Positions 4,053 to 60,045 of a stretch of 64,000 nucleotides of DNA are shown in pieces. Each line of letters opens with the position of its first letter. The first letter of the stretch is position 1. The position numbers and the translations under genes are program-made. The notes below the pieces were generated by a model. The model had not been told where the DNA came from and ran no database searches. It saw nothing but the letters and a program-made list of their open reading frames with translations. Origin of the DNA: Pyrinomonadaceae bacterium (lineage in GTDB: Bacteria; Acidobacteriota; Blastocatellia; Pyrinomonadales; Pyrinomonadaceae); assembly GCA_041745765.1 (NCBI GenBank), contig JBGTIH010000062.1, forward strand, positions 595-64,594, given 5' to 3'.

Positions 4053-4092
4053 TAAATTTCTTCAAAAGGCGAAATTATAACCGATGAAAAAC

Positions 4093-4133
4093 CAAAAAGC
4101 ACGGCGGAAAAATTGATTTTCCGCCGTGCTTTT
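4093..4133 (-). terminator. Terminator hairpin downstream of the 4162-7458 receptor gene
   Basis: AAAAAGCACGGCGGAAAA-attg-ATTTTCCGCCGTGCTTTT, a GC-rich stem flanked by A/T runs on both sides. Confidence 0.6.
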
Positions 4134-4161
4134 GGGCTGTTTGTGTAATGAAAGATGCGGT

Positions 4162-7100
4162 TTAGAAAACCAATCTTCCGCCGATGATGATGCGGCGATT
4201 TCCGCCGTTTGTCGCACCTTCGTTCAGGAAGTTCGCGCCGGCGTTAAGTGCTGCATTCGGAATACCGTAGTTGCGGTGATTCGCCACATTGAACATATCC
4301 ACACGAATTTGAGCGCGGACTCTTTCAGTAATCATCGTATTTTTGATTACGCCGAAATCAACCAACGCGATACCGTCTGCCCGCAGAATGTTTCTTCCTG
4401 CAGTTCCGACTCTTTGCCCCGCTGTTACCGGAGAGAAAAAGTTAGGACAGGCATTACCCGGAATCGGCGTTCCGCATTGCGCCTTGATTTCCCGAACGGA
4501 CATACCGGATATATTCGTATTGGTAATCAGATTCGGTCTGATCGCATTTCCGACCAAGCCGGAAATTCCACTTAACGCGCCAGCCGGATCAGCTCCGTTC
4601 AAGACCGTGAACGGTGCGCCGCTCTGGAATGTAAAGAACGAATTAAGCTGCCAGCCGCCGAGAAGTTTTCCAGCGAAACCTTGTTGACCGCGATAGAAAG
4701 GAAGCTGATAAACAAAGTTTCCGGTAAAGCGGTGCGGGCGGTCATAACTAGAACGTCCGCGTTCTGAAGCCCGGTTAAACGAATCTTGCGAAACCGCAAC
4801 TTCTCCGGTTGACGGATTAAAGATTTCCGATGCCGTATCAATAAATGAACTCCATGTGTAATGAATACCGGCACTAAAATTATTACTCAGACGTTTGTCA
4901 AGACTGACCTGCATCGAGTGATAAATCGAATTTGCCGAATTAGCCCGAAGCCGGATTACACCGCGCGTCGGATCAACCCGCGGACAGGGATTGGCAGCCG
5001 TTCCGCCGACACAAGCCGTGCGCGGATTGCCGTCTATTGTCTGGAAAAGTCCTGTTCCTCTTGTTCCGACATACCCGACTTTAAAAACTGTATCTTTGGT
5101 TAATCCTCTTTGCATTTCCAAAGAAAATTGATCTGCCGCCGGAGCGCGAAAATCATCGCCGACAATTGTGCGGGCGATGAAATTCGGATTTGCCACATTC
5201 GGCGCACCTAAACTCTGCATCGAAGCAAAAGCATTTTGTCTGGTCGGCTGTCCCGGTTCGCCGAAATTGATCGCAGCGACAAACGGAAATGCCGTCGCTA
5301 CGTTAAGATTAATGTTGATAAAGTTAGCATCGTAGGTTCGTGCGTAACCCCCGCGAACGACCATTCGGTCTCCGCCGGTCAAGAATCCTAACACACCCGT
5401 ATTACGCGTAGTCGGATTCCAGTTAAAACTAACACGCGGCATAAAATTATTTTTATCCGGTTGCGGAACAGGCGTAAAAGTAAAAGCCGGATTATTTCCG
5501 TTTGCCGCTAAAATACGCTCGTTCAGGTCTTTCAGATAAGTAAATGAATCGCCGGGATATTCGTATCTAACGCCATAGCTCAATGTAAAATTCGGCGTAA
5601 CCCGCCACTGATCCTGAGCATAGAAGTAGAACTCCTGCCACTCATAGAAACCGAGAGTGTCGCCGCCGGCTAACGGACGGTTAATTGTTGCGGCAACATC
5701 GGCGTTATCATCAACAAAATTTTGCAATGTTGAATAAGCCAGACGACCGCGAACTGTCGGGAAGAAAAAGCTCTTGACTTGCAGCCAACGCCAATCTACT
5801 CCGAATTTCATTGTATGGTTGCCTTTGACGAAACTCAAACTATCTTGAATTTGATAAGTATTATTGATACGGAACTGCGGCAGATTTACAGCCAAACCGA
5901 TTGCCGTGCGGTTCGCCGCAGCATTAAAACCCAGTAATCCAAGGTTGCTGATCTCAATTGAAGGAATAGTTTCCGAACTTGGATCAACCGCATTCGTGCT
6001 TGAATCGTATCGGGCGTAGGAAAGCCGCAGTTCGTTGGTTACATTGCTTCTAACGACGCTATTCCAGACAAATGTCGTGGCTTGCGAAAGAAGTTCGCCC
6101 TGATTTGTCAGTCCGGGCGGCGTAACCTGTCCGGTGCCGGCGGTTGTCTGTTTGGCAAAACGATGCCGACCGTAGATTAAATTTCTGTCATTAATTCGAT
6201 GATCAACGCGCACCGAGCCTTGATGATCGTCGAATTTGAAGGAGGACGAGCCGGTTACATTACCAAGCGGAACGGTAAAGGTTTGACCGTTAGCGGTAAA
6301 ATTAACGCTTGATCCGTTCGGCGTACCTGCCGGAACGAATTGTAAAAGAGCTTGAACTTGCGGACGATTGCCGACTGCTTGCTGCAGAATCTGTCTTCCG
6401 GCGGCGGTCGGCGCACCGCTCAAGGTAAAGCCCGAACCCGAAGCGCGGTCAGACCATCGCTGATAGTCGCCGAAGAAAAACGTGCGGTCTTTTCCGCTTA
6501 TAATATGGGGATTTTTTCGACCGAAACCAAATGCCGGAACCGGAAGAGGTCCGCCGACGGTAAAGCCGATTTGATTTTCGAGTCTAAGCGGAGCAAAAGT
6601 TCTCGCCGGATCCGTAGCATTCGGATTACAAAAACCGGCACTTTTATCCGTATTGCTGCAAGCATTCAGCCTCTTGTTATTATGAAACCAGAAAAGCGAA
6701 CCGTTAATATTGTTAGTTCCCGATTTTCCGATAAAATTAACAACCGAACCGGAATTGCGTCCGTATTCGGGCAAAAATTGACTGGTAACAATCCGAACTT
6801 CCTGAAACGCATCAGGATTATTCAGCGCAAGCTGTCCGCCGGCAACGCTCGGATCATTTATATCCTGCCCGTCAATCATAAAATTGTTTGAACGAACACG
6901 CCCGCCGTTTGAAGAAAAACTGATACCGTTGGCAAAGCCTGTTTGACCGCTTCCCAATTGGCTTACGCCCGGAACAGACAGTAAGACATTAAAAACACTG
7001 CGGTTTGACGCAATCGGAAGTTCCGCCAAGCGTTTTTCATCAAAGCGTGTGCTGACTTCTGCAGTAGTTGTATTTAATACCGAAGCATCTTCTGAAACGG

Positions 7101-45825: not shown

Positions 45826-46251
45826 TTAAGAAGTTATACCGGAAGAAGGCAAAGTCAGAAAAAGCTTGCCGTTTTTGATGCCTTTCAAGCTCAAAAGCCG
45901 GTTGGAAAGTTCGACGATTTCGGACACAATGCCGCGCAGGGCAATGATTTCCATACAATCATCGTGGCTGACGTGAAGGTGCATTACGGACAAAATATTA
46001 TCGTGAAAATCGTGCTGAATCGCGCCCATTTCCTGCGCCAAATTTCGGGCGTGATGGTCATAGACGAGCGTCAAACTGCCGAGTGCATTTATTTCGGTTT
46101 GCGTTTCAATTTTTTGCTGAATTAATGCTTCACGAATCAGATCGCGCAACGCTTCGGAACGCGTCGCATAGCCGCGATCGTTAATTAAACGGTCGTAATT
46201 TTCCAGTAAATCCTGATCTATGCTGACACCAAATCTGACTAATTCACTCAT
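45826..46251 (-). CDS. nikR: Nickel-responsive regulator NikR
   Basis: N-terminal ribbon-helix-helix (LVRFGVSIDQDLLENYDRLI...GYATRSEALRDLIR) and a C-terminal ACT-like domain with His/Cys metal ligands (HDHHA..., HLHVSHDDCME). Confidence 0.85.
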   Translation of the reverse strand: MSELVRFGVSIDQDLLENYDRLINDRGYATRSEALRDLIREALIQQKIETQTEINALGSLTLVYDHHARNLAQEMGAIQHDFHDNILSVMHLHVSHDDCMEIIALRGIVSEIVELSNRLLSLKGIKNGKLFLTLPSSGITS

Positions 46252-46273: not shown

Positions 46274-47239
46274 TCAATCACCCAAAAATTTATCGGGAAT
46301 CAGATAATTCTGCACATAATCGGCGACGGATTCGTGTAAAGACATTATTTTTTTGTCGTAGCCGGTTTCACGAATTCGTGTCAAATCGGCTTGCGTGTGA
46401 TATTGATAACGATCCCTTAAATGTTCGGGCATTTCAACGAATTCGATTGCGGGCGGCAGATCGAGCGCGTTAAAAATCGCTTTAGCAAGTTCGTTCCAGG
46501 TGTGCATTTCGCCCGAGCCGACGTTGAACAAACCGCCGATTTTATTTTCTATAAAATGCAGAGTCATTTCCGTAACGTCTTTCACATAAACAAAATCGCG
46601 GCCGAATTCGCCGTCTTGATAATCGGGATTCGCGCTTTTGAAAAGCTGTAATTTCCCCGTGTCGCGAATCTGCGCAAAGGCTTTGTTGATGAGCGAACGC
46701 ATATCTTCTTTATGGTTTTCATTCGGTCCGAAAACATTGAAATATTTCAGCCCGATGATTTCTTTTAATAATCCGGTGCGATGCGCGTAAAGATCGAAAA
46801 GATGTTTCGAGTAGCCGTAGACATTGAGCGGGCGAAGCTTTTCAAGGTTTTCCGTGCCGTCTTCCATTCCTTGTTCACCGTCGCCGTAAGTCGCCGCGCT
46901 CGATGCGTAAATAAAGCGTTTGCCGTTTGAAACAGACCAATTAGCGAGCGTTTTCGTAAATTCGTAATTATTCCGCATCATAAAATTAGCGTCGCGCTCA
47001 GTCGTCGCCGAACACGCGCCTAGATGCAGAATAATTTCGGCTTTATTATGCTGTTCTAGATTCGCAATAAAATCGTCCGCGTCCAAATAATCCGCAAACT
47101 TTAACGGCGCAAGATTTTTCCATTTGTCCGAAGAATCCAGCCGGTCAACGATCAAAATATCCGTTTCGCCCAATTGATTAAGCCGCCAAACAAGCGCACT
47201 TCCAATAAATCCCGCGCCGCCGGTAACAATAATTTTCAT
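46274..47239 (-). CDS. hldD: ADP-L-glycero-D-manno-heptose 6-epimerase
   Basis: MKIIVTGGAGFIGSA..., ...HLGACS.TTE...MM.NNY... and ...YASSAATYG... track E. coli RfaD closely. Confidence 0.85.
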   Translation of the reverse strand: MKIIVTGGAGFIGSALVWRLNQLGETDILIVDRLDSSDKWKNLAPLKFADYLDADDFIANLEQHNKAEIILHLGACSATTERDANFMMRNNYEFTKTLANWSVSNGKRFIYASSAATYGDGEQGMEDGTENLEKLRPLNVYGYSKHLFDLYAHRTGLLKEIIGLKYFNVFGPNENHKEDMRSLINKAFAQIRDTGKLQLFKSANPDYQDGEFGRDFVYVKDVTEMTLHFIENKIGGLFNVGSGEMHTWNELAKAIFNALDLPPAIEFVEMPEHLRDRYQYHTQADLTRIRETGYDKKIMSLHESVADYVQNYLIPDKFLGD

Positions 47240-47313
47240 AATGGAAAATAGAAAATGAAAAATGGAATTTGTTTCTGATTATAATTTAACACTTATCCGT
47301 TTTCCATTTTTCG
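47240..47313. repeat. Heptamer-word hairpin (AATGGAA/AATAGAA arms)
   Basis: aatggaaaatagaaaatgaaaaatggaa ... tccgttttccatttttcg. Confidence 0.6.
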
Positions 47314-47322
47314 TTAAATAAA

Positions 47323-48303
47323 TTACCAACCGAGAATATAAGCGAACATCAGCGGCGCAACGATTGACGCGTCGGATTCGACGATGAATTTCGGCGTATC
47401 AACCGCCAATTTTCCCCAGGTGATTTTCTCGTTCGGAACCGCGCCTGAATAACTTCCGTAAGAAGTTGTCGAATCAGAAATCTGACAGAAATAACCCCAA
47501 ACGGGAACGCTTTCGCGTTGTAAATCCTGATGCAGCATCGGCACGACGCAGATCGGAAAATCGCCCGCGATGCCGCCGCCGATCTGGAAAAACCCGATGG
47601 TCGAATCGTCAATCGCGTTTTCGGTGTACCAATCGGCGAGCATCATCATATATTCGATTCCGGTTTTGACCGTATGAACATTTTTCACATCGCCCGTGAT
47701 GACGTGTCCGGCATACATATTCCCCATTGTTGAATCTTCCCAACCGGGAACAACCATCGGCAGATTTTTCTCCATCGCCGCATACATCCACGAATCTTTC
47801 AGATCAATCTGGTAATACTCTTCGAGCGCACCCGATTTCAAAACCTGATACATAAATTCGTGCGGAAAATAGCGTTTTCCTTCCGCGTCGGCTTTCGTCC
47901 AAACGTCAACCATCGCTTTTTCAAGCCGCCGCATCGCTTCCATTTCGGGAATGCACGTATCGGTTACGCGGTTCATATGCCGGTCGAGCAAATCCTGTTC
48001 GTCCTGCGGCGTTAAATCTCTATAATCCGGCACTCGTTCGTAAAAATCGTGCGCGACGAGATTAAACAAATCTTCTTCCAGGTTCGCGCCCGTGCAGGAA
48101 ATTACCTGCACTTTGTCTTGCCGGATCATCTCCGCCAAAGACAATCCTAGTTCTGCTGAACTCATTGCACCGGCAAGAGTTATCATCATCTTGCCGCCGT
48201 TTTCTATGTGAGTTTTATAACCTTCCGCCGCGTCAATTAACGCCGCCGAATTGAAATGCCGAAAATGATGTTTGATAAATTCGCTGATTGTTTGATTATT
48301 CAT
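47323..48303 (-). CDS. Deoxyhypusine-synthase-like (homospermidine-synthase-like) protein
   Basis: ...MMITLAGAMSSAELG..., ...ISCTGANLEEDLF... and ...QIGGGIAGDF... The ATG at 48303 is preferred over the TTG at 48327. Confidence 0.7.
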   Translation of the reverse strand: MNNQTISEFIKHHFRHFNSAALIDAAEGYKTHIENGGKMMITLAGAMSSAELGLSLAEMIRQDKVQVISCTGANLEEDLFNLVAHDFYERVPDYRDLTPQDEQDLLDRHMNRVTDTCIPEMEAMRRLEKAMVDVWTKADAEGKRYFPHEFMYQVLKSGALEEYYQIDLKDSWMYAAMEKNLPMVVPGWEDSTMGNMYAGHVITGDVKNVHTVKTGIEYMMMLADWYTENAIDDSTIGFFQIGGGIAGDFPICVVPMLHQDLQRESVPVWGYFCQISDSTTSYGSYSGAVPNEKITWGKLAVDTPKFIVESDASIVAPLMFAYILGW

Positions 48304-48562
48304 AATAAAATTAAAAAAGCCCTGCAACCGCCTACGGAAATCTTCCGCTATCGAACGCTTTTTCGCGGCTTCGGGAATATAAAATTAAGTTTTAATCTAT
48401 ATCAATTTACTGCAAATTTGCAAACTTTACAGCTTTTAAGATTGCCGGAGAAAAGAGAAATGGAACGCAAATATACGTGGATTAGGCATTTTTTGCTGAT
48501 TTTTATAAAAACAATCAGCGTAAATCCGCTAAATCCGTGTTCATCCGCATCCCATTTCTTAT

Positions 48563-49027
48563 TTATTTCCGAGCAACTTCTTTCTGAATTTTCATAACTT
48601 CTGCTATTGAAGCGAGGATTTTCTCCGTGAAAGATTTCGGTTTTACTTCGCAAACGGCGTGCAGTCCGAGCAAAACGTGAACAACTTTGATCGCACACAA
48701 CACGGTTTGATCAACATCTTTAACCGAAAATTGCGGATTTATGCCGAGATTTACGCGCGCCGTTTCATCGCACCACGCATCGGCATTTTCGAGCGCGATG
48801 GCTTCGGCAATTATTTTCGTGTCGGTTTCAGGCGGCAAATGCAGGATCATAGAACAATATTCGCCGTCCAAAGATAAATCGCTTTCCACACCGACCGTTT
48901 CGAGAAAACCTTCGCGCACGTCTTTTGCCATCGTCAGCAAAATCTTATAAGTTTCAGGAAATAATTCTTCCTGATCCTGAGGCGCAGAAATATGCCCGGA
49001 AATAGATAAACCTTTTTCCTGTAACAT
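48563..49027 (-). CDS. Hypothetical protein that vaguely resembles the C-terminal domain of a fold-type-I PLP enzyme
   Basis: 154-aa ORF. The family was not confidently recognised. Confidence 0.4.
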   Translation of the reverse strand: MLQEKGLSISGHISAPQDQEELFPETYKILLTMAKDVREGFLETVGVESDLSLDGEYCSMILHLPPETDTKIIAEAIALENADAWCDETARVNLGINPQFSVKDVDQTVLCAIKVVHVLLGLHAVCEVKPKSFTEKILASIAEVMKIQKEVARK

Positions 49028-49404: not shown

Positions 49405-50190
49405 TTAAATATTAAAAGTAACCGAAGCCCAAAAACTTTCCCATTCAAAACTTTTCGCATTCGAGTGTTTTCTAATCAAATGCGAACGAACAAACCAATG
49501 TCCGTTTTGCGTGATTTCGATTTCGGCGAAACCATTTTCGTCCGTTCGCGTATGCGCCGAATACTTTCCGCCGTTTAAGTTTTCCGCGCCGTTTGAAACG
49601 CGCAGGTTTTCGACCGGTTTTCCTTCAAATAAAACCTGCACGCGCATAAGTTTAGCGGAAATTTCCGTTAAAACGATTTCAAATTTGTGACCGATTTTTC
49701 GAGTAAAAACTTCCGTGTTTTCAGCGTTGTTTTTTACCAAAACCTTGGCAAATTTCGCATAACTTTCGCGCTGTTGCTCACCCGTTTCGCCGATCACGAA
49801 ATCCGGCGCGGTGAACATTTGCGCCGCTTCGTCTTCGATATAATGCGCGAATCTGTCGGCTTCGAGCGTGATCGGATGCGGCAATAATTCGATTGCGGCG
49901 ACAAACGCCGTCTTCGGTTTTTCTTCGACAATTGCCGTCAAAGATTTTCCTTCAACTGTAAAATTGGTGATATTTTGTACGCCGTTTTTCGATAAAACCC
50001 TGAATCCGGCGATTCTTTCCGTCATTACCGCAGAATCGCTGGCGGGAAAATCGTCGCCCGTATTGATCTCGATCTTCGTTTTCTCCGCCGTTTCATTTTT
50101 GCCGACGAGCCATAAATTATGCCCGAAAATCAAGCATAAAGAAGATAAAAAAGTCAGTATTTCAAGTAAATTAAAATTTTGAATTTCCAT
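49405..50190 (-). CDS. DUF4198-like periplasmic protein (metal-uptake accessory candidate)
   Basis: 261 aa. Signal peptide then GHNLWLV..., with an Ig-like beta-rich composition. It lies 3 nt downstream of the ABC ATPase gene. Confidence 0.6.
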   Translation of the reverse strand: MEIQNFNLLEILTFLSSLCLIFGHNLWLVGKNETAEKTKIEINTGDDFPASDSAVMTERIAGFRVLSKNGVQNITNFTVEGKSLTAIVEEKPKTAFVAAIELLPHPITLEADRFAHYIEDEAAQMFTAPDFVIGETGEQQRESYAKFAKVLVKNNAENTEVFTRKIGHKFEIVLTEISAKLMRVQVLFEGKPVENLRVSNGAENLNGGKYSAHTRTDENGFAEIEITQNGHWFVRSHLIRKHSNAKSFEWESFWASVTFNI

Positions 50191-50193
50191 TTA

Positions 50194-51675
50194 TTATTTC
50201 TCCGATAAAATTTCCAAACCGCCGTTTTGCATTGAAAAAACGCGGTGACACCAGCGTTTTAATAAATCGTGATCGTGGCTGACGAGGACGATTGCCGTGC
50301 CTTTTCGCGCGGTTTCGGCGAAAAGTTTCATAATGAGTTCGCCGCTCAAAACGTCGAGCGATGAGGTCGGTTCGTCCGCCGCGATGATTTTCGCCTCAGC
50401 CGTCAGAGCGCGGGCGATAGCGATGCGCTGGCATTGTCCGATTGAAAGTTCGGTCGGTCGCGCGTCTAAATTTACATTTTCCAGACCGACTTCGCCGAGT
50501 TTCTCTCTGGCAATTTCGCGCCGTTCAATTTTTAAAAATTTCTTCTTCCGGTGTTTTGCCGTCAAAGGTTCGGTGATGATTCGCCAGATCGCCCAACGCC
50601 GGTCAAGGCTTGCCAAAGAATCTTGAAAAACGGGCATAACAAAACCGTTTCGCGCGTTTCGGCTTAAAATTTTGCGCGTTTCGCCGTTTGAAACGAGTTC
50701 GCCGCCGAGATAAATTTCGCCTCTTTTCGGGGTTTCAATCGTTGAAACAAGCCGCAGAAGAGTAGATTTTCCGCAGCCCGACGCGCCGTAGATTCCGACG
50801 ATCTCGCCTTGTTTGATCTCTAAATTCAAACCTTCGATCAGTTCGTTTTGCCCGTAAAAATGACCGAGATTTCTTGTTTCCAAAACAGTTTTCGCGTTTT
50901 CCAAAATTTGCGCCGTTTCCCGGATTTTCAGATGCGAAACGGACAATAATTTTTTCGTATATGCGTGCTGCGGATTATGAAAAATATCACACGCCGCGCC
51001 GCTTTCGACGATTTTGCCGTCAAACATTACGGCAATCCGGTCGGCGTATTTTTCGACTAATTTCAGATCATGGCTGATGAGCAGAACGGCAGTTTTCAGC
51101 TTTCGCAAAGATTCCAAAACCGCTTGATTCAGCTCGGCATCGAGCGCGCTGGTCGGTTCGTCGGCGATAATCAATTTCGGCGAATGCGCCGCCGCCGCCG
51201 CGATTCCGGCGCGTTGCAGCATTCCGCCGCTCCAGGCGTTCGGAAATTGTCTGACTTTTGATTTTGCGTTTTCGATTTTGAGTTTTTCGAGCGAATTTTC
51301 AACCGCATTTTTCGGCGGAACAATTGAATGAACGCGCCACGCTTCACCGACAAAATCGCCGACCGTCGCTAGCGGATTACAAGCCGAAAACGGGTCTTGC
51401 GCAACAAATCCGATGACCAAACCGCGCAATTTTCGCAAAGTTTTTGCGCTCGAATTTATGATTTCTTTCCCGTTCGCAAAGATCGTGCCGTCAATTTTAG
51501 TTTTCGGCGGAAGAACGCCGAGCGCGGCGCGAGCCAGAGTTGATTTTCCGCAGCCCGATTCCCCGACGAGCGCGAAACATTCGCCCGCCGGTATCGAAAA
51601 CGAAACCTCGTCGAGTGCCCGTTTGCCGTTCGGATATGTTACCGAAACTTGTTGAAAATCAAGAACTTTGGACAT
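50194..51675 (-). CDS. Fused double ABC ATPase (NikD/NikE- or DppD/DppF-like)
   Basis: Two Walker A motifs (GESGCGKST, GASGCGKST) and two signature/Walker B sets (SGGMLQR...IIADEPTSALD, SIGQCQR...IAADEPTSSLD). The ATG at 51675 is preferred, because the longer start at 51693 lies inside the repeat element. Confidence 0.85.
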   Translation of the reverse strand: MSKVLDFQQVSVTYPNGKRALDEVSFSIPAGECFALVGESGCGKSTLARAALGVLPPKTKIDGTIFANGKEIINSSAKTLRKLRGLVIGFVAQDPFSACNPLATVGDFVGEAWRVHSIVPPKNAVENSLEKLKIENAKSKVRQFPNAWSGGMLQRAGIAAAAAHSPKLIIADEPTSALDAELNQAVLESLRKLKTAVLLISHDLKLVEKYADRIAVMFDGKIVESGAACDIFHNPQHAYTKKLLSVSHLKIRETAQILENAKTVLETRNLGHFYGQNELIEGLNLEIKQGEIVGIYGASGCGKSTLLRLVSTIETPKRGEIYLGGELVSNGETRKILSRNARNGFVMPVFQDSLASLDRRWAIWRIITEPLTAKHRKKKFLKIERREIAREKLGEVGLENVNLDARPTELSIGQCQRIAIARALTAEAKIIAADEPTSSLDVLSGELIMKLFAETARKGTAIVLVSHDHDLLKRWCHRVFSMQNGGLEILSEK

Positions 51676-51682
51676 TTCTAAA

Positions 51683-51788
51683 GTCAGAACCATCTGCGGT
51701 AGCGGATGGTTAAAAATAACTTTTCAAACCTTGGCAAATAACTCAAATTTTCGAGTTGAACCGCCCGCTACCGCAGACGGTTCTGACC
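51683..51788. repeat. Palindromic dispersed element, copy B (between the permease and ATPase genes)
   Basis: GTCAGAACCATCTGCGGTAGCGGATGGTT-46 nt-AACCGCCCGCTACCGCAGACGGTTCTGACC. The arms are the reverse complement of copy A with one mismatch. Confidence 0.85.
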
Positions 51789-51839: not shown

Positions 51840-52709
51840 CTATTCCGTCACATCCCGCAGAGCATTTCCGGTCAAATTTGCCGACATTACCGAAAGAAAA
51901 ATCGCCAGCGCGGGCGCGAACAGCAGCCACGGCGCGAATGTAAAAAACGAACGCGATTCGGCGAGCATCGCGCCCCATTCGGCGTTCGGCGGCTGAACTC
52001 CCAAACCGAGAAAAGAAAGCGACGCGAGCAAAATAATTATTCCGCCGAGATCGAGCGTCGCCACAATTAACATTTGAACGAAAACCTGCGGAAAAATATG
52101 TCCGATGACGATTTTTATCCAGCTGATTCCGCACAAACGCGCGACGATGACATCTTTTCTCTGTATTGAAATCCGCACAAACGAGCGCGCCAGACGCGTG
52201 TAAAAAGCCAGCGACGATACAAAGATCGCAAGCAACAGATTTTCAAAACCGACACCGAGAACGCCGACGATTCCCAGAGCTAAAACAATCGGCGGAAGCG
52301 CGAGAAAAACGTCAATCACGCGCATCGCGGCTGCGTCAATAATGCCGCCGATCATTCCGAAAAATGTTCCGAGCGCAATACTGACCAGCAGAATTAAACT
52401 CAAAACCAGAATTGCCGAACCGAGCGAACGAAGCCCGCCGCTCGCGATCCGCGTCAACAAATCGCGCCCGAACTGGTCTGTTCCGAACGGATGCGTCAGA
52501 CTTGGCGAAAGCAATTTTGCACCCGCAATTTGTTCGTCGGGCGAAAACGGCGAAACGAACGGATAAAGAATGACGAAAATTATCAATATCAATCCGACAA
52601 AAATTGCGAAACGCGCCGTTCGTTTTGTCCAGAGTTTTGCCAAAACGTGTTCGGTCGAAAATACCGGAATTTCTGTTCCGCGTTTCCAGAATGTCTCCAG
52701 CACGTTCAT
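51840..52709 (-). CDS. ABC permease, NikC/DppC-like
   Basis: 289 aa, 6 TM helices, binding-protein-dependent transport signature region. Confidence 0.85.
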   Translation of the reverse strand: MNVLETFWKRGTEIPVFSTEHVLAKLWTKRTARFAIFVGLILIIFVILYPFVSPFSPDEQIAGAKLLSPSLTHPFGTDQFGRDLLTRIASGGLRSLGSAILVLSLILLVSIALGTFFGMIGGIIDAAAMRVIDVFLALPPIVLALGIVGVLGVGFENLLLAIFVSSLAFYTRLARSFVRISIQRKDVIVARLCGISWIKIVIGHIFPQVFVQMLIVATLDLGGIIILLASLSFLGLGVQPPNAEWGAMLAESRSFFTFAPWLLFAPALAIFLSVMSANLTGNALRDVTE

Positions 52710-53659
52710 CAGTTTTGTGCCTCGCTGATTCGCGGATCAATCAATGCGCTTATTACATCAACCAAAAAATTCGCCGCCACATAAACAAGCGTCGCAAAAA
52801 CGATAAAGCCTTGCACGACCGGCAGATCACGCGCCGCGACCGCTTCGACGGCAAACGAGCCGATACCGTTCCAGGAAAAAACCGTTTCGACAATCGCCGC
52901 GCCGCCGAGCAGAGAACCGATGCCGACACCGACGACCGTCAAAAAAGGCAAAAGCGCATTCGGCAAAGCATATCGCCACAAAATTCGCCAACGCGTCGCG
53001 CCTCGCGCCTGCGCCATAAAAGAATATTCCGCCGACATTTTTTCGAGCAGATTGGCACGCAGAATCTGCGTCCAATCGAGCGCACGCGCCGTTGCCAGAC
53101 AAATCGCCGGAAGCCAAACGTCCGCCAAAGAAGTCGAAGAAATAACTTTTCCGATGCCGAAACCGACGACGACAAATTGCAGTAGAAAAAGCCCGAGCAG
53201 AAACGACGGAATCGCCGCGCCGGTTTGAGTTAGAAATTTAATCAGATGATCGGGAAATTTGTCGGCAAAATAAACGCTTGTCAGGCTCAAAACGAGCGAA
53301 AAGGAAATCGCCAAAACGAGCGAAACACTTGCCAGCATAACGGTTGCGGGAATTCTGCTGCCGATCTCGGCGGAAACCGATCTGCCGTTTTTATACGAAT
53401 TGGAAAAATCTCCGCGAACCGCTTTGGCGAGCCAATCGAAATATTGAATGGTTAAAGGACGATCTAAATTCAATTCCGCCCGAACCGCCGCGATTTCCGC
53501 CGGAGTCGGATTTTCAACGCCGCGCGATTGCAAGATCCGTTCCGGCGGATCGCCCGGCGCTAAGGGAAGCAAGCCCCAAATCAAAAGAGACGCCCCGAGC
53601 ATTGCCAGAATTGCTTGCCCGGCGAGAGTTAATATTTTTTTGAAAATCGAATTTTTCAC
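52709..53659 (-). CDS. ABC permease, NikB/DppB-like
   Basis: 316 aa. N-terminal ...LPLAPGDP... is typical of DppB/NikB permeases. Confidence 0.85.
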   Translation of the reverse strand: MKNSIFKKILTLAGQAILAMLGASLLIWGLLPLAPGDPPERILQSRGVENPTPAEIAAVRAELNLDRPLTIQYFDWLAKAVRGDFSNSYKNGRSVSAEIGSRIPATVMLASVSLVLAISFSLVLSLTSVYFADKFPDHLIKFLTQTGAAIPSFLLGLFLLQFVVVGFGIGKVISSTSLADVWLPAICLATARALDWTQILRANLLEKMSAEYSFMAQARGATRWRILWRYALPNALLPFLTVVGVGIGSLLGGAAIVETVFSWNGIGSFAVEAVAARDLPVVQGFIVFATLVYVAANFLVDVISALIDPRISEAQN

Positions 53660-53665
53660 TAAACT

Positions 53666-55219
53666 TTAATCGGCTTTTGTTTCAAAAGTTATATGAAACA
53701 TCTGCGGCGACGGCTGATAATTTTTGAATCTTTTGCCGACGACGGCTTTCGAACGCGAAAATCCGAGCCGCACGAGATAGGCTTTTTCGGTAATGATTAT
53801 ATCTTGAATTTCGCCTAAAATTTTGTTTCGCTCTGTTTCGTCAAATGTTCGGCTCAAAGTTTTAATTCGTTCGTCGAGTTCTGCGTCTGAAATTCCCGAA
53901 TGATTTTCTTCGGAATCGCTCGCATAATATCTCTGCAAGATCGGATCGGTTGCGCCGCCCGTCGTCAGATTTCCGTTTCCGAGAATATAAAAATTCCACG
54001 TTTTCGACAGTTTCAATTCACTCTGAATATCATCAACCTGCCGGATTTTAATAGCGAAACCGATTTGCCGAAGCTGCGCCTGAAGCGCGATGGCGAGTGC
54101 GGAAAAATCGGCTTGCTGCGAGTAAATAAGAATTTCCGCTTCGAGTTTTTTGCCGTTCTTTTCGCGGATTCCGGTTGAATTTGCAATCCAGCCGCTTTCG
54201 TCCAGAAGTTTTTTCGCCTGTTCAAAATCGGTTTTCTGATTCGGCTTTGCCCAGGGGAAATTCGGCGCGTAAAAACCATTCGCGGGCAGATAAATGCCGT
54301 CCATCGTTTCCACGGCGAGCGATTCGTAATTTATACCGAAACTGACGGCGCGGCGCACGCGTTCGTCGTCGAACGGCGCGATTTTCGTGTTAAAAAACAA
54401 ACTCGGTCCGCCCGTAGATTTGTCGCTCAATTTGAAAAAAGCGTCATCGCGATTTTCGAGCATTCGTTTATTCTGCGTTTGCGGATAGAGCGAAATATCG
54501 GCTTCACCGTTTTGCACGGCGAGAATCCGCGCTTGCGGATCGCTGACGAAAATAATCGAAACGCGCTCAAAAGGCGGCGTTCCCTGCCGGTAATACTCGT
54601 TTATTTCCATCAGCATTTCGCGTTCATCAACCGCCGCGATTTTATACGCACCCGTATAAACGCCTTTTCCCGCAAGTTTTAGCGTATCTGCTTCGACCTC
54701 TTCGACCGTTTCCACGTCATAGATCGGAAAAACCGTTTCGTCCGCCAGAGCCGAAGGAACGCTCGGGTTGGGAACTTCGGTCGTCAAAATAATTTCGTTT
54801 TCGCCCGTGTTTTTCGCGCTCGCTTTGCCCATCGCGACCTTTGTTTCGGGCGATTTTTCCAGATGCCGGTTCATCGCGCGGGCAAAGATTTCCGCCGTCA
54901 GAGGTTTTCCGTTTTGAAATTTGATGTTCGGACGAAGTTTGAGTTTCCAGTTTAATTTATCAATCTGTTCAAACGATTCGAGCAGCCACGGCTTGATTTT
55001 TCCGTCGGAATCGAGCCGCGCGGGAAGCTCCGCCGCGCCGAATTCGACCAGAAAATAATGCGCCGATTTAAGCGGATCGAGATGCTGAATCTTAAACGGC
55101 GTAACGACGCGCAGATGATTTGCGTCAGATATTTGATTCGTTTCAGACGAATTTTGACACGCCGAAAATAAGCAAATTAGTGCTGAGATCAGCGTGAAAA
55201 TTGAAAAATATGATTTCAT
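53666..55219 (-). CDS. ABC substrate-binding lipoprotein, family 5 (NikA/DppA-like)
   Basis: 517 aa with lipobox LFSAC and a family-5 SBP size and pattern. Confidence 0.8.
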   Translation of the reverse strand: MKSYFSIFTLISALICLFSACQNSSETNQISDANHLRVVTPFKIQHLDPLKSAHYFLVEFGAAELPARLDSDGKIKPWLLESFEQIDKLNWKLKLRPNIKFQNGKPLTAEIFARAMNRHLEKSPETKVAMGKASAKNTGENEIILTTEVPNPSVPSALADETVFPIYDVETVEEVEADTLKLAGKGVYTGAYKIAAVDEREMLMEINEYYRQGTPPFERVSIIFVSDPQARILAVQNGEADISLYPQTQNKRMLENRDDAFFKLSDKSTGGPSLFFNTKIAPFDDERVRRAVSFGINYESLAVETMDGIYLPANGFYAPNFPWAKPNQKTDFEQAKKLLDESGWIANSTGIREKNGKKLEAEILIYSQQADFSALAIALQAQLRQIGFAIKIRQVDDIQSELKLSKTWNFYILGNGNLTTGGATDPILQRYYASDSEENHSGISDAELDERIKTLSRTFDETERNKILGEIQDIIITEKAYLVRLGFSRSKAVVGKRFKNYQPSPQMFHITFETKAD

Positions 55220-55292: not shown

Positions 55293-55557
55293 CGTTGGCT
55301 TATGGTGTGTTCAAAATAAATCCGGTAATAAAAAGAAAGGCTTTCGGCTGGGAGCGCGGGCACCCTGCCTGCACCGTTCGAGGCTTGGCGAGAACGGCAC
55401 GCGCCCGTTTGTCACCGATAAACTTTCGAGTAATCAAGGCGTGCGTCCGTTCCTTGCTTCGCTCTGAACGGACGGGCAGGCAAGATGCCTGCGCTCCCGA
55501 CGTAAATGCTAACTTTTTTATTACGGCTTTTATTTTTTCAATGAACATTAGCCAACG
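55293..55557. repeat. ~265-bp nested palindromic element with a GC-rich core (MITE-like)
   Basis: ~45-bp imperfect terminal inverted repeats (cgttggcttatggtgtgttcaaaataaatccggtaataaaaag / cttttttattacggcttttattttttcaatgaacattagccaacg). The inner arms are gggagcgcgggcaccctgcctgcaccgttc / gaacggacgggcaggcaagatgcctgcgctccc. Confidence 0.7.
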
Positions 55558-55654: not shown

Positions 55655-58600
55655 TTAAAAATTGACTTTCGCCGAAAGTTGAAACGAACGCGGTCCGCCG
55701 ATCTGATAGAGCGAACTCAAACCGCCGAGACCGTTGCCAAGCATCTGCACCGAACGTCCGAAATTAGCGTTCGGCAAAACACCGATCGGATTGGCAAAAT
55801 TCGGACGATTCAGGATGTTAAATCCATCGGCGCGAAGCTGAATGTTCAACGTTTCCGTGATTCCGAAAGTTCGTCTGAGCGACAGATCGAGCTGATTCGC
55901 GCCGAAACCGCGCAGAACGTTGCGTCCAAGCGTTCCTTGCCGGTTTTCCGACGCAGGCGGAACGACAAATGCATTGCGGTTGAAAATTCTTCCGCCGGGA
56001 GCGTTTCTGTCGTCAATATAGAGCGGTTGTCCCGCAACATAATCGGGGCGCAAAACGGTCGTCGTGCCGAGATTAAAGCGGTTTACGCCGGAAACGATGT
56101 TGACGGGCGTCGCGGTTCGCGCACGAAATGTCGCGTCCAAACCGAATCCGCCGAAGATCATTTTGCCGATTCCGTCTTTAAAAATCGAAGGAATTTCGTA
56201 AGAAACCGCCGCATTGAATGATTGCCGGATGTCGAAATTCGAATGTCCGTAATCGTTTCGCACGTCAAACGCATCGGTTCGCGCTTGAAGATTATTGTTT
56301 GCTTCTTCGGAAACATTGTCCAAAGATTTTCCGAAAGTGTAAGACGCGAGAACCTGCAAACCTCTGGAAAAACGGCGTTGATATTGCGCCTGAAGTGCGT
56401 TGTAATTTGAAAATCCGCCGTTGGTCGCGAGATCGATGCGCGGAAAATCCGCATTGACGCTGCGAATCGTTTCGGCGCGTCCGAGCCTTCGTCCGCGTGC
56501 GCCGATGTATGACAGCGAAAACGTATTATTTCCCGCAAAAGCCTTTTCAATCGCTAAATTATACTGCACAGTATAAGGCAATTTATAGCCGTTTTCGTAA
56601 GCAAAAATGCGCGGATACGGCGGATTCTGATTCACCGGCGGCGACTGCGCGGCAAAGGTCGGCGATGTGTAGGTTTGATTTGAAAGATTCGTGATGCTCG
56701 CAAACGGATAAACGCCCGTGCTGAAAGCCGTTCCCGCAAAATTGTAGCCGAGATCGTGAAAAATGCCGATGCCGCCGCGAATTACCGCGTCGAATTTCGG
56801 CAATTTATAGGCAACGCCGAAACGCGGCGCGAAATTATTAAAAGTCGTTTCATAAAAACGCGTGCCGGCGGGCGCGAGCGTAACTTTTGCAAAATTCGAC
56901 AGATCCGTGACGGTCGGCGGCAAGTGTCCGTTTTTTTCGTCCGGCGCGGGAACGACTTCGTAGCGCAAACCGTAACTCAAGGTCAGATTCGGATTGACGC
57001 GCCAGGTGTCCTGGACAAACGCCGAATAATTATCATAAATCGGCAGAAGTTCGAGCTGCGGCGCAATGATCGTCGCCGATGAAGGCGTATTGGCGACTAA
57101 ATTGGCAATCGAACCGGGAAGAAATTGGCGTTTGTAAAAACCGCTGAAACTTGCCGGAAAAAGTCTGCGATAATCAAAACCGAATTTGACGGCGTGATTT
57201 CCGACTGTCCAATTCGTCGTATTGACGATGTTAAATTGTCGCTGGCGAAAATCCGAAAAAAGCCCGTCGCTCAAGGTGTTTGAACCCGAAGCGTTGACTT
57301 CAATTAAAATATATCCTTGCGAACCGTTCGTAAATGAAGGATAAAGCGCGGCTTGCGACGGAACGACCGCACCGCCGAACGTATCTAGAAAATAGGTCTG
57401 ATTCGATTTCGATTTGCTGATATTGACGCGCAAATCGTTAGAAACATTTGCCGAAAAAATCATCGTTGAACCAATCGTCAAAGTCTGCGTTTTTGAAGTC
57501 AAACGACCGACACAGCTTGCCGCGCAAAATCTGGCGCGTTGGTCATCCTGCGACGGCGAATAATTATAACGCCCGAAAATGTTGAATTTCTCGTTAATTT
57601 GATGGTCAATCCGAAAACTCGTCGCGTCCAATTTCGCAGGATTTGTAAAACTGGCGATATACGGCGCGACATTCGGATTCGATGCGAGCGGCGCGCCCGT
57701 CGGAAGCGGAAAGGCGCTTAAAATTTCCTTCAAAACTCCGGTCGCATTATTTCGCGCTTCAATCGAAGGAACTTGCAGAGGTTCGCTGACAAACGGCTGG
57801 CGCAGGCGCAATCCTTCATACGAAAAAAAGAAAAATGTGCGATTCCGCCCGTCGAAGATTTTCGGAATAAAAACCGGACCGCCGACAAATGCGCCGAAAT
57901 TATTCTGGCGAAGCGGTTGCCGCGCTAACCGATTGGCGTTGGCAAACCAGTTGTTTGCGTCGAGTTTGTCGTTCCGTAAATAATTGAACACGCTTCCGTT
58001 TAAACGGTTCGTTCCCGAACGCGTCACGAGCGAAATCTGTCCGCCCGGCTGACGACCGAATTCCGCCGCGTAAGTCGAAGTTTGAATCGAAAATTCCTGC
58101 ACCGCATCAATCGAAGCGAGGCTCGCCGTCGTTCCCAAAACCGAATAAGCCGGAACTGCGCCGCCGAGTGCTTCATACGGCGTGGTTGCCGCGACCGAAC
58201 CGAAATTTCCGCTCACGCCGTCAACTGTCAGATAATTCGAACTCGTCCGCTGTCCGTTGACCGAAAATTGTCCCGGATTGACGAGATTCGACGGCGTAAT
58301 GACAACGCCGGGCGACAATTCGACCAGATTTTGAAACGACCGACCGTTGAGCGGCTGGTTTGCGATAAATTGGCGGTCAACGACCGTTGAAACCGCCGGA
58401 GAATCCGTTATAAGTTCGGTTGAAGTAACTTCGACGACTTCGCTGACCGAAGACACGCGAAGCTGTATCCGCAAGCTGCTCTGGTCATTGACATTTAAAA
58501 CGATTTTTGACTGCGAAACCGCAAAGCCTTGTGCCGCGACGGTTAAAATATACGCACTCGGCGGCAGTTGCGAAAACACAAAACTTCCATCAGCGTTGGT

Positions 58601-58789
58601 CGTTGCCGTTCGCTCAAAAGCGGTTCGCTCATTTTTGATTTTTATGACCGCATTCGGCACGATTGCGTTTTGTTCATCCGCAACGGAAACGCGCAAAGTT
58701 GCCGATGCCGTTTGCGCGTTTGCCTTCCAATTAAAGAGCAAAGCACATAACAGAAAGCCGAAAATGATTGATTTTTTGACATTCAACAT
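55655..58789 (-). CDS. TonB-dependent receptor with carboxypeptidase-regulatory-like N-terminal domain (candidate nickel receptor)
   Basis: 1044 aa. Signal peptide, then N-terminal TLRVSVADEQ...SAYILTVAAQGF block, then a barrel ending ...QLSAKVNF. A NikR-box-like palindrome lies on its promoter. Confidence 0.85.
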   Translation of the reverse strand: MLNVKKSIIFGFLLCALLFNWKANAQTASATLRVSVADEQNAIVPNAVIKIKNERTAFERTATTNADGSFVFSQLPPSAYILTVAAQGFAVSQSKIVLNVNDQSSLRIQLRVSSVSEVVEVTSTELITDSPAVSTVVDRQFIANQPLNGRSFQNLVELSPGVVITPSNLVNPGQFSVNGQRTSSNYLTVDGVSGNFGSVAATTPYEALGGAVPAYSVLGTTASLASIDAVQEFSIQTSTYAAEFGRQPGGQISLVTRSGTNRLNGSVFNYLRNDKLDANNWFANANRLARQPLRQNNFGAFVGGPVFIPKIFDGRNRTFFFFSYEGLRLRQPFVSEPLQVPSIEARNNATGVLKEILSAFPLPTGAPLASNPNVAPYIASFTNPAKLDATSFRIDHQINEKFNIFGRYNYSPSQDDQRARFCAASCVGRLTSKTQTLTIGSTMIFSANVSNDLRVNISKSKSNQTYFLDTFGGAVVPSQAALYPSFTNGSQGYILIEVNASGSNTLSDGLFSDFRQRQFNIVNTTNWTVGNHAVKFGFDYRRLFPASFSGFYKRQFLPGSIANLVANTPSSATIIAPQLELLPIYDNYSAFVQDTWRVNPNLTLSYGLRYEVVPAPDEKNGHLPPTVTDLSNFAKVTLAPAGTRFYETTFNNFAPRFGVAYKLPKFDAVIRGGIGIFHDLGYNFAGTAFSTGVYPFASITNLSNQTYTSPTFAAQSPPVNQNPPYPRIFAYENGYKLPYTVQYNLAIEKAFAGNNTFSLSYIGARGRRLGRAETIRSVNADFPRIDLATNGGFSNYNALQAQYQRRFSRGLQVLASYTFGKSLDNVSEEANNNLQARTDAFDVRNDYGHSNFDIRQSFNAAVSYEIPSIFKDGIGKMIFGGFGLDATFRARTATPVNIVSGVNRFNLGTTTVLRPDYVAGQPLYIDDRNAPGGRIFNRNAFVVPPASENRQGTLGRNVLRGFGANQLDLSLRRTFGITETLNIQLRADGFNILNRPNFANPIGVLPNANFGRSVQMLGNGLGGLSSLYQIGGPRSFQLSAKVNF

Positions 58790-58831: not shown

Positions 58832-58858
58832 GTGTTATGGATTCAATAATCGTAACAC
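58832..58858 (-). promoter_or_regulatory. NikR-box-like palindrome, GTGTTAC-N13-ATAACAC on the gene strand
   Basis: On the plus strand it reads gtgttat-ggattcaataatc-gtaacac, 43-69 nt upstream of the receptor ATG and just downstream of a -10-like hexamer. Confidence 0.55.
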
Positions 58859-58864
58859 GGAGGG

Positions 58865-58894
58865 ATAATATTTTCTTAAACTTTCGGATTTCAA
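58865..58894 (-). promoter_or_regulatory. Sigma70-like promoter candidate, TTGAAA-N18-TATTAT
   Basis: Read on the minus strand upstream of the receptor gene. The spacing and hexamers are plausible but not verified. Confidence 0.35.
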
Positions 58895-59049: not shown

Positions 59050-60045
59050 CTAATTTTTTGAGGCTTCTTTATAACCGCTCGGATTCGCTTCGTGCCATTT
59101 CCACGCGCTTTCGATTATTGATTCGATGTCGGGAAATTCGGGTTTCCAGCCTAAAACTTCACGCGCTTTTTTCGCGTCGGCAACGAGACGCGAAGGATCG
59201 CCCACGCGGCGCGGCGCGATGCGCGATTCGATCGGTTTTCCGGTAATTTTCCGCGCCGCTTCAACTACTTCTTTGACCGAAAATCCCGTTCCGTTTCCAA
59301 GATTTATAAACTGCGATTTGCCGCCATTGTTTAAAAAATCAAGCGCGAGCAGATGCGCCTGGCTCAGATCGGAAATATGGATGTAATCACGAATTGCCGT
59401 GCCGTCGGGCGTTGGATAATCGTCGCCGAAAATCGAAATAAATTCGCGTTTCTGTTGCGCGGCAAAAAGAATCAGCGGAATCAGATGAGTTTCGGGATCG
59501 TGATGTTCGCCGCACTTTTCGGTTGCGCCGCAGGCGTTGAAATAGCGAAGCGCGACATATTTCAAACCGTAAGCGCGGTCGTAATCCTGCAAAACTTTTT
59601 CGACCATAAACTTTGTCATTCCGTAAGGATTGACCGGATTTTGCGGATGATTTTCGTCAATCGGAACTTTTTGCGGTTCGCCGTAAGTCGCGCAGGTCGA
59701 GGAAAAAATGAATTTTTTGACATTGTTTTCGATCAAACAATCAAGCAGATGAAGCGTTTGAACAAAATTGTTTTCGTAATATTTCTGCGGTTTTTCGACC
59801 GATTCGCCGACGTAGGCAAACGCCGAAAAGTGCATACACGCGCTTATTTCGTGTGCTTGAATGATTTTTTCGACCAGGTTTTTGTCGCCGATATTTCCTT
59901 CATAAAAAGGAATTTTTGAATCAATGGCTTGCCGGTGTCCGTAGACGAGATTGTCTAAAACGACGACCGTTTCGTTTCGTGCCTGTAAATCTTCGACGAC
60001 CGCGCTGCCGATATATCCCGCGCCGCCTGTAACCAAAATTGACAT
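59050..60045 (-). CDS. galE: UDP-glucose 4-epimerase
   Basis: [14 protein letters not shown]..., YxxxK region ([10 protein letters not shown]), 331 aa. Confidence 0.9.

Follow-up and report, generated by a model that had tools for sequence, protein, structure and literature searches.

A candidate NikR operator in front of a TonB-dependent receptor and a NikABCDE-type gene row in the Pyrinomonadaceae (Acidobacteriota)

A 27 bp palindrome in front of a TonB-dependent receptor gene of a Pyrinomonadaceae bacterium is very likely an operator for the nickel-responsive RHH repressor NikR. Read from the DNA alone, the arrangement is very probably a NikR switch on a receptor plus nickel ABC-importer operon, which is well supported yet of an expected kind, in a little-studied phylum. 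The stretch of DNA that was analysed is 64 000 nucleotides in length and is referred to as the window throughout. The features of the window on which the argument draws are given below.

58865-58894, minus strand: promoter-like pair TTGAAA-N18-TATTAT, identified by consensus match only (10 of 12 positions).
58832-58858, minus strand: candidate NikR operator of the inverted-repeat type, unique in the window, with the top matrix score genome-wide and kept in orthologous promoters.
58852-58858, minus strand: promoter-distal half-site, GTGTTAC with GA behind it, unchanged in all six promoters that were aligned and identical to the published half-site (PMC545781).
58832-58838, minus strand: promoter-proximal half-site ATAACAC (consensus GTAACAC), of which TAACAC is invariant in the six-promoter alignment.
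55655-58789, minus strand: TonB-dependent receptor TBDR1, 1044 aa, the first gene behind the operator, with Pfam CarboxypepD_reg, Plug and OMP_b-brl_4 domains and a signal peptide.
53666-55219, minus strand: NikA-like family-5 solute-binding protein, 517 aa, SBP_bac_5, with Opp5A_nikA and nickel_nikA as best NCBIfam models, below cut-off.
52709-53659, minus strand: NikB-like permease, with the Opp2B/NikB nickel ABC permeases as best NCBIfam models, below cut-off.
51840-52709, minus strand: NikC-like permease, with Opp2C/NikC as best NCBIfam models, below cut-off.
50194-51693, minus strand: fused double ATPase of the NikD plus NikE type, with nickel_nikD and nickel_nikE as best NCBIfam models, just below cut-off.
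49405-50190, minus strand: DUF4198 protein (Pfam DUF4198), the final gene of the row.
45826-46251, minus strand: nikR (NikR1, 141 aa), whose product presumably reads the operator, with RHH_1 and NikR_C domains and a match to NCBIfam NF003381.

The letters of positions 58832-58858 on the plus strand are GTGTTATGGATTCAATAATCGTAACAC, and on the minus strand, which is that of the receptor gene, the site reads GTGTTAC-GATTATTGAATCC-ATAACAC. It spans positions -43 to -69 relative to the receptor ATG (58789). A palindrome with 7 nt arms, a 13 nt spacer and one mismatch had been claimed in the original prediction, and re-reading of the sequence found all coordinates and distances to be correct. The single deviation from perfect symmetry is an A instead of G as the first base of the promoter-proximal arm, and the arms extend to 8 nt each when the flanking C/G is counted.

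A NikR consensus of GTGTTAC-[N13/14]-GTAACAC has been described for the delta-proteobacteria (Rodionov et al., 2004, Genome Biol 5:R90; PMC545781), in agreement with the consensus given in the original prediction. The window site matches at 13 of the 14 arm positions, and its N13 spacer falls in the 13-14 nt range. In the same source the nik operons of D. vulgaris and D. desulfuricans are listed with GTGTTAt-[N13]-GTAACAC, so the arms in the window are those of Desulfovibrio, and everted sites, GTAACAC-N13-GTGTTAC, are given for D. psychrophila (PMC545781). The A variant of the promoter-proximal arm is common to these Desulfovibrio sites and to four of seven foreign sites from the family. The delta-proteobacterial operators (Geobacter, Desulfovibrio and Desulfuromonas) share the half-site, the 13 nt spacer and the 27 bp length, and they also lie upstream of nickel importers (PMC545781). 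Here, however, the site belongs to a different phylum, the Acidobacteriota (Blastocatellia/Pyrinomonadaceae), and the genes behind it are a TonB-dependent receptor and a NikABCDE-type importer rather than importers of the ECF type (NikMNQO/NikKMLQO). The NikR of Geobacter uraniireducens is said to bind such promoters, which was not used as evidence.

The pattern GTGTTAY-N13/14-RTAACAC had a single match in the window and no match in 100 shuffles, and the window site was the sole N13 match with at most one mismatch in the 4.76 Mb assembly (43% G+C). Because ∼0.8 such matches are expected by chance per genome under a uniform model (our own arithmetic), the window match taken alone lacks genome-wide significance; what makes it significant is its position before nickel-transport genes, its conservation in orthologues and its first rank under a matrix made from foreign sites. 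This matrix was generated from seven sites of other genomes, with the window site left out. Over the 4.76 Mb genome it placed the window site first at 30.5 bits, and the next distinct site scored 21.7 bits. The latter, ATGTTAC-N13-ATAACAT (C176:31142-31168; L135 7143-7169), falls on the start annotated for a fatty-acid desaturase ORF, with no evident link to nickel. Other two-mismatch matches of the genome scan fell in unrelated contexts and were rejected. One of them, GTGTTAG-N14-CTAACAC, is a perfect 28 bp palindrome whose arms are like those of a NikR box except in the last base (G for C) and whose spacer is N14. This palindrome (tAGTGTTAGAATTGAATTCAATTCTAACACTa, about 30 bp in all; C190:19956-19987; L001 5957-5988) ends 25 nt upstream of the ATG of a gene for alkaline phosphatase and is probably the operator of a different regulator.

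The box was found again in front of orthologous receptors. Within the genus, one relative carries a receptor that is 92% identical and whose ATG lies 42 nt behind a perfect box (G005), and in a second the receptor is 65% identical, the perfect box stands 37 nt before the ATG and the receptor is followed by nikA-nikB-nikC-nikDE-DUF4198 (G002). In another genus of the same family (G092) the order is nikR, box, receptor (64%), nikABCDE and DUF4198. When six promoters were aligned the invariant columns were essentially GTGTTAC and TAACAC, with little else, and protein identities of 64-65% argue against recent transfer of the whole promoter as the source of the shared boxes. G002 additionally contains a frameshifted, truncated nikR remnant directly upstream of the box and receptor (L142, about 4070-4200; G002:C1), which comprises RHH residues 1-43 only and is most similar to the intact nikR found at that position in G092. 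The ancestral layout, judged from these loci, was probably nikR, box, receptor and nik operon.

Occurrence of the box was assessed over a family sample of 201 genomes, with the reversed pattern as control. The exact inverted pattern yielded nine sites in 7 of the 201 genomes, compared with three sites for the reversed control. A nikR gene was present in all seven box-carrying genomes and in 57 of 201 overall (28%), a comparison between related genomes and not an independent-sample statistic. The genes directly behind the nine exact sites were receptors (six), CbiM/NikM(N) (two) and one other. The ninth site, in G079, has the degenerate variant in both arms, lies between glycosyltransferase and MarR genes without nickel context, and looks like a chance match. 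The spacer is N13 in all related sites but one. As to whether the motif occurs at random, which the original prediction had proposed as a check, the outcome was favourable: its distribution is non-random in both the genome and the family, and in this sample it marks TonB-dependent receptor and NikM genes, in nikR-carrying genomes only.

Conservation of the box is not universal among homologous loci. Outside the genus, the full-length receptor homologue of highest identity (79%; MAG SZAS-13, L035, 10001-18193) has no recognisable box in its upstream region. Behind it come DUF4198, a PepSY_TM protein, nikR, a direct-repeat site and a second receptor, without nikABCDE, and nikR and the direct-repeat site lie 2 kb downstream of the 79% identical receptor. 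A GTGTTAC-type box was detected in none of three Blastocatellia loci in which a receptor is coupled to nikABCDE (L041, L043 and L097), and TAGCAC...GTATG-like sequences at the equivalent place in L041 and L043 could not be shown to be sites. The upstream regions of about 80 homologous Acidobacteriota receptors, 1.4 Mb in all, contained three zero-mismatch half-site pairs, all before receptors; most of these homologues are paralogues without a box.

Behind the site in the window is a co-directional row of genes encoding the TonB-dependent receptor, a NikA-like binding protein, NikB, NikC, a fused NikDE and DUF4198. The row has the architecture of a NikABCDE-type importer (solute-binding protein, two permeases and two ATPase domains), with all NCBIfam scores under the equivalog cut-offs. 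The 12 best solved relatives of the NikA-like protein are all nickel-binding proteins (12 of 12), and for TBDR1 no sequence relative was detected among solved structures (PDB). DUF4198 recurs beside homologous receptors in other Acidobacteriota, in the arrangements TBDR-DUF4198 and TBDR-nikABCDE-DUF4198. The nikABC(DE)-like importer and DUF4198 that follow the receptor, predicted from their sequences and understated or overlooked in the original prediction, are the strongest local argument for nickel. The gap between the receptor and nikA is 435 nt, and it contains a GC-rich nested long hairpin at 55293-55557, with a MITE- or REP-like look, and a separate promoter-like pair, TTGAAA-N18-GATAAT, at 55259-55230; a scan of this gap for a NikR box gave none. 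Given the hairpin, the separate promoter-like pair and the lack of a box in this gap, regulation of the importer genes may not be tightly tied to that of the receptor.

The nikR gene that had been pointed out at 45826-46251 encodes a bona fide NikR by its domains, its NCBIfam score (NF003381: 163 bits, cut-off 105) and its intact His3Cys ligands. Alignment to the NikR proteins of E. coli (1Q5V) and P. horikoshii located equivalents of H76, H87, H89 and C95, all present, and the DNA-reading beta-strand is RFGVSI in NikR1, RFSISI in P. horikoshii and RVTITL in E. coli. The gene sits 3 kb beyond the DUF4198 end of the row, and it is preceded by a deoxyhypusine-synthase-like gene and a second epimerase gene (region 46274-49027). 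Relatives have an epimerase gene first (product 80-92% identical to that encoded at 59050-60045 of the window), with or without a 154 aa ORF like that at 48563-49027, then nikR, a direct repeat and the second receptor. In the window the receptor-nik operon sits between the epimerase gene and the 48563-49027 ORF, and the synteny around it suggests that a rearrangement has taken place in the window.

The genome carries a second nikR gene (C180:122657-123076), which shares 86% identity with the window copy. Behind it stands cGTGTTACttattttttattcGTGTTAC (C180:123130-123156; L134 9131-9157), in which the half-sites are repeated directly (GTGTTAC-N13-GTGTTAC), and a second receptor (823 aa) starts about 43 nt further on. 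The same direct repeat, with unrelated flanks, lies between nikR and the orthologous second receptor in G002, G003, G001, G006 and the SZAS-13 MAG. When about 30 nikR loci of the family were surveyed (NikR at least 74% identical), a pair of half-sites at N13 (one at N14) was found between nikR and the second receptor in 27, and these pairs were mostly direct, with two inverted. The exact direct pattern was present in 20 of the 201 genomes, compared with one for the control, and 18 of these 20 contain nikR. The single-contig genome G002 combines a single intact nikR with a single inverted and a single direct site, and G133 has the inverted form before an orthologue of the second receptor. A Bryobacterales MAG, TGS_ACI1, has a perfect everted site, GTAGCAC-N13-GTGCTAC (L048 9844-9870), about 130 nt before a receptor that is 50% identical to the window receptor and is followed by DUF4198. 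As a variant half-site, GTGCTAC is shared with several Pyrinomonadaceae direct repeats.

The direct-repeat arrangement in the Pyrinomonadaceae differs from the delta-proteobacterial sites listed in PMC545781, which are inverted and everted only. In NikR, two symmetric RHH dimers are attached through flexible linkers (PMC11672702). The GTGTTAC half-site has an internal pseudo-symmetry (GTnnnAC), so that such a dimer could dock either way round. On the pattern of sites found in these genomes, we lean towards the view that Pyrinomonadaceae NikR reads the half-site in either orientation, provided that the half-site centres are 20 bp apart. An orientation-free operator is the part of this work with some real novelty, and, if such reading is true, searches for NikR regulons that consider palindromes only would miss the commonest operator form of this lineage.

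These distributions bear on which protein reads the site. The palindrome might be the operator of a different protein, such as another RHH protein, a member of the Fur family or another metal regulator, with NikR merely a neighbour. The window nikR (45826-46251) is indeed apart from the site (58832-58858), at a distance given as 9 kb, three unrelated genes lie between it and the operon, and L041, L043 and L097 have the same operon and no box. However, confinement of the box to nikR-carrying genomes (seven of seven against the 28% background), its position directly after nikR in G092, the half-site directly behind nikR at 27 of the roughly 30 loci, and the identity of the site with a consensus derived independently for delta-proteobacterial NikR regulons (PMC545781) all speak against a different reader, which we consider improbable.

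The promoter-like pair consists of TTGAAA at 58894-58889 and TATTAT at 58870-58865, and ends 6 nt upstream of the operator. Six such pairs were found in 4.1 kb against 5.0 expected from shuffles, which is not above chance, and the two hexamers had no clear conservation in orthologous promoters. The 'classic repressor position' of the original prediction therefore holds in its distances to the hexamers and the ATG, but it depends on a promoter call that is at chance frequency and poorly conserved. For the same reason, that the site overlaps the promoter is deduced from the distance to the ATG.

NikR binding at this site, its nickel dependence, repression over activation and the position of the transcription start are all predicted here; nickel-dependent repression is the mechanism that the data favour most, and the following sequence of events would accommodate it. 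With sufficient cytoplasmic nickel, a Ni-loaded NikR tetramer would place one RHH dimer on each GTGTTAC-type half-site, the half-site centres being two helical turns apart. The site would overlap the core promoter or lie a short way downstream of it, between the -10 match and the ribosome-binding site, and its occupancy would block initiation or promoter escape. Control would probably reach the nikABC(DE)-DUF4198 genes by read-through from the receptor. When nickel is scarce NikR would be off the DNA, and the receptor, then the periplasmic NikA-like binder and then the ABC permease would form a two-membrane uptake route. All genes of the row would be transcribed together, and the substrate would be nickel or one of its chelates.

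NikR might also bind the site and act as an activator, or have a mixed role, with the receptor made under abundant nickel. H. pylori NikR is documented as both repressor and activator and provides a precedent at some promoters (PMC11672702), and the promoter call in the window is weak. Yet the genes concerned are uptake genes, whose induction by excess nickel would harm, and the characterised NikR-controlled importers are all repressed. The location of the site, 43 nt from the ATG and downstream of the only good -10/-35 match, also suits blocking of polymerase better than its recruitment, and an activating role appears decidedly improbable.

The palindrome could alternatively act as an RNA hairpin in the 5' leader, with a role in stability, attenuation or translation control. 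The arms do pair in the predicted leader fold (-14.2 kcal/mol, z = -2.6 against shuffles), but across orthologues they are sequence-invariant and not co-varying. The stem would be 7 bp with a 13 nt loop and no U tract, unlike a terminator, no terminator was called there, and an Rfam search of the leader and the receptor-nikA gap gave two sub-threshold chance matches only. Because the direct-repeat half-sites in the same regulon cannot pair, the hairpin reading is strongly disfavoured, and we give it very little weight. Least credible of all is a chance palindrome without function, for which the ∼0.8 matches expected per genome (at most one mismatch, uniform model) and the chance-like G079 match could be cited, since the box keeps its position in orthologous promoters of two genera with diverged flanks, has the highest genome-wide score with an independently built matrix and has nickel-transport genes behind it.

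Operation as a NikR operator is comparable with what has been described in E. coli and Helicobacter. E. coli NikR (1Q5V and 2HZV) is homologous to the window regulator (E = 7e-26) and has the same four nickel ligands. The E. coli nikABCDE operator also has two half-sites two helical turns apart and governs repression of a NikABCDE-type importer, but its sequence, GTATGA-N16-TCATAC, has half-sites unlike GTGTTAC. The E. coli nik operon is not known to include an outer-membrane receptor. In E. coli nikR adjoins its target (PMC2667541).

NikR-repressed, TonB-dependent nickel uptake is established for FrpB4 of H. pylori (PMC3856676), which confirms the precedent invoked in the original prediction. 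For H. hepaticus, NikR regulation of nikABDE and of a receptor homologue (NikH-like) is reported (PMC3856676). The H. pylori FrpB4 and FecA3 systems and that of H. hepaticus thus resemble the window locus in that NikR is placed over an outer-membrane TonB route plus inner-membrane uptake (PMC3856676, PMC11247825), an arrangement which in the window is predicted. In contrast, the operator of H. pylori NikR is AT-rich, weakly conserved and unlike the box described here, and the window receptor belongs to a CarboxypepD_reg/OMP_b-brl_4 class that is typical of Acidobacteriota. Outside Helicobacter, three receptors, Bll6948, Daro_3944 and Rgel01002199, have been tied to nickel by comparative genomics (Rodionov 2006, as cited in PMC11247825). 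According to PMC11247825 their assignment was likewise made through nickel transport genes and NikR, the receptors in these cases being proteobacterial, and NikR-linked TonB-dependent receptors outside Helicobacter had accordingly already been predicted (PMC11247825).

A search for nickel enzymes in the 95% complete assembly turned up no NiFe hydrogenase, HypA, urease gamma, Ni-SOD or CbiM. Weak Urease_alpha matches cover part of the domain in 540 aa ORFs, with no gamma subunit, and urease was rejected on this basis. The candidate nickel users seen in the assembly were two LarA-like (Lar_N) genes and one ARD gene only, and a nickel demand is consequently not obvious; the scoring matrix located no sites near LarA or ARD genes. 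Of the other nickel-related genes at which the original prediction had suggested looking for the motif, nikR has the half-site beside it, and hydrogenase and urease gamma were not found in the assembly.

Acidobacteriota carry dozens of CarboxypepD_reg-type receptors without a known substrate, and the present analysis gives a hint of function, nickel or nickel-chelate uptake under predicted NikR control, for one 1044 aa receptor of the Oar/CarboxypepD_reg type. The same hint applies to its recurrent partner DUF4198. Two predicted NikR-controlled receptors in a genome with apparently no hydrogenase or urease point to another nickel sink, for which LarA-type nickel-pincer enzymes are candidates. 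The direct repeat beside nikR poses the concrete question of how an RHH tetramer reads DNA. The GTGTTAC-type NikR signal would be extended from the delta-proteobacteria to the Acidobacteriota, with a family-specific motif that may be used in annotating nickel regulons in soil metagenomes.
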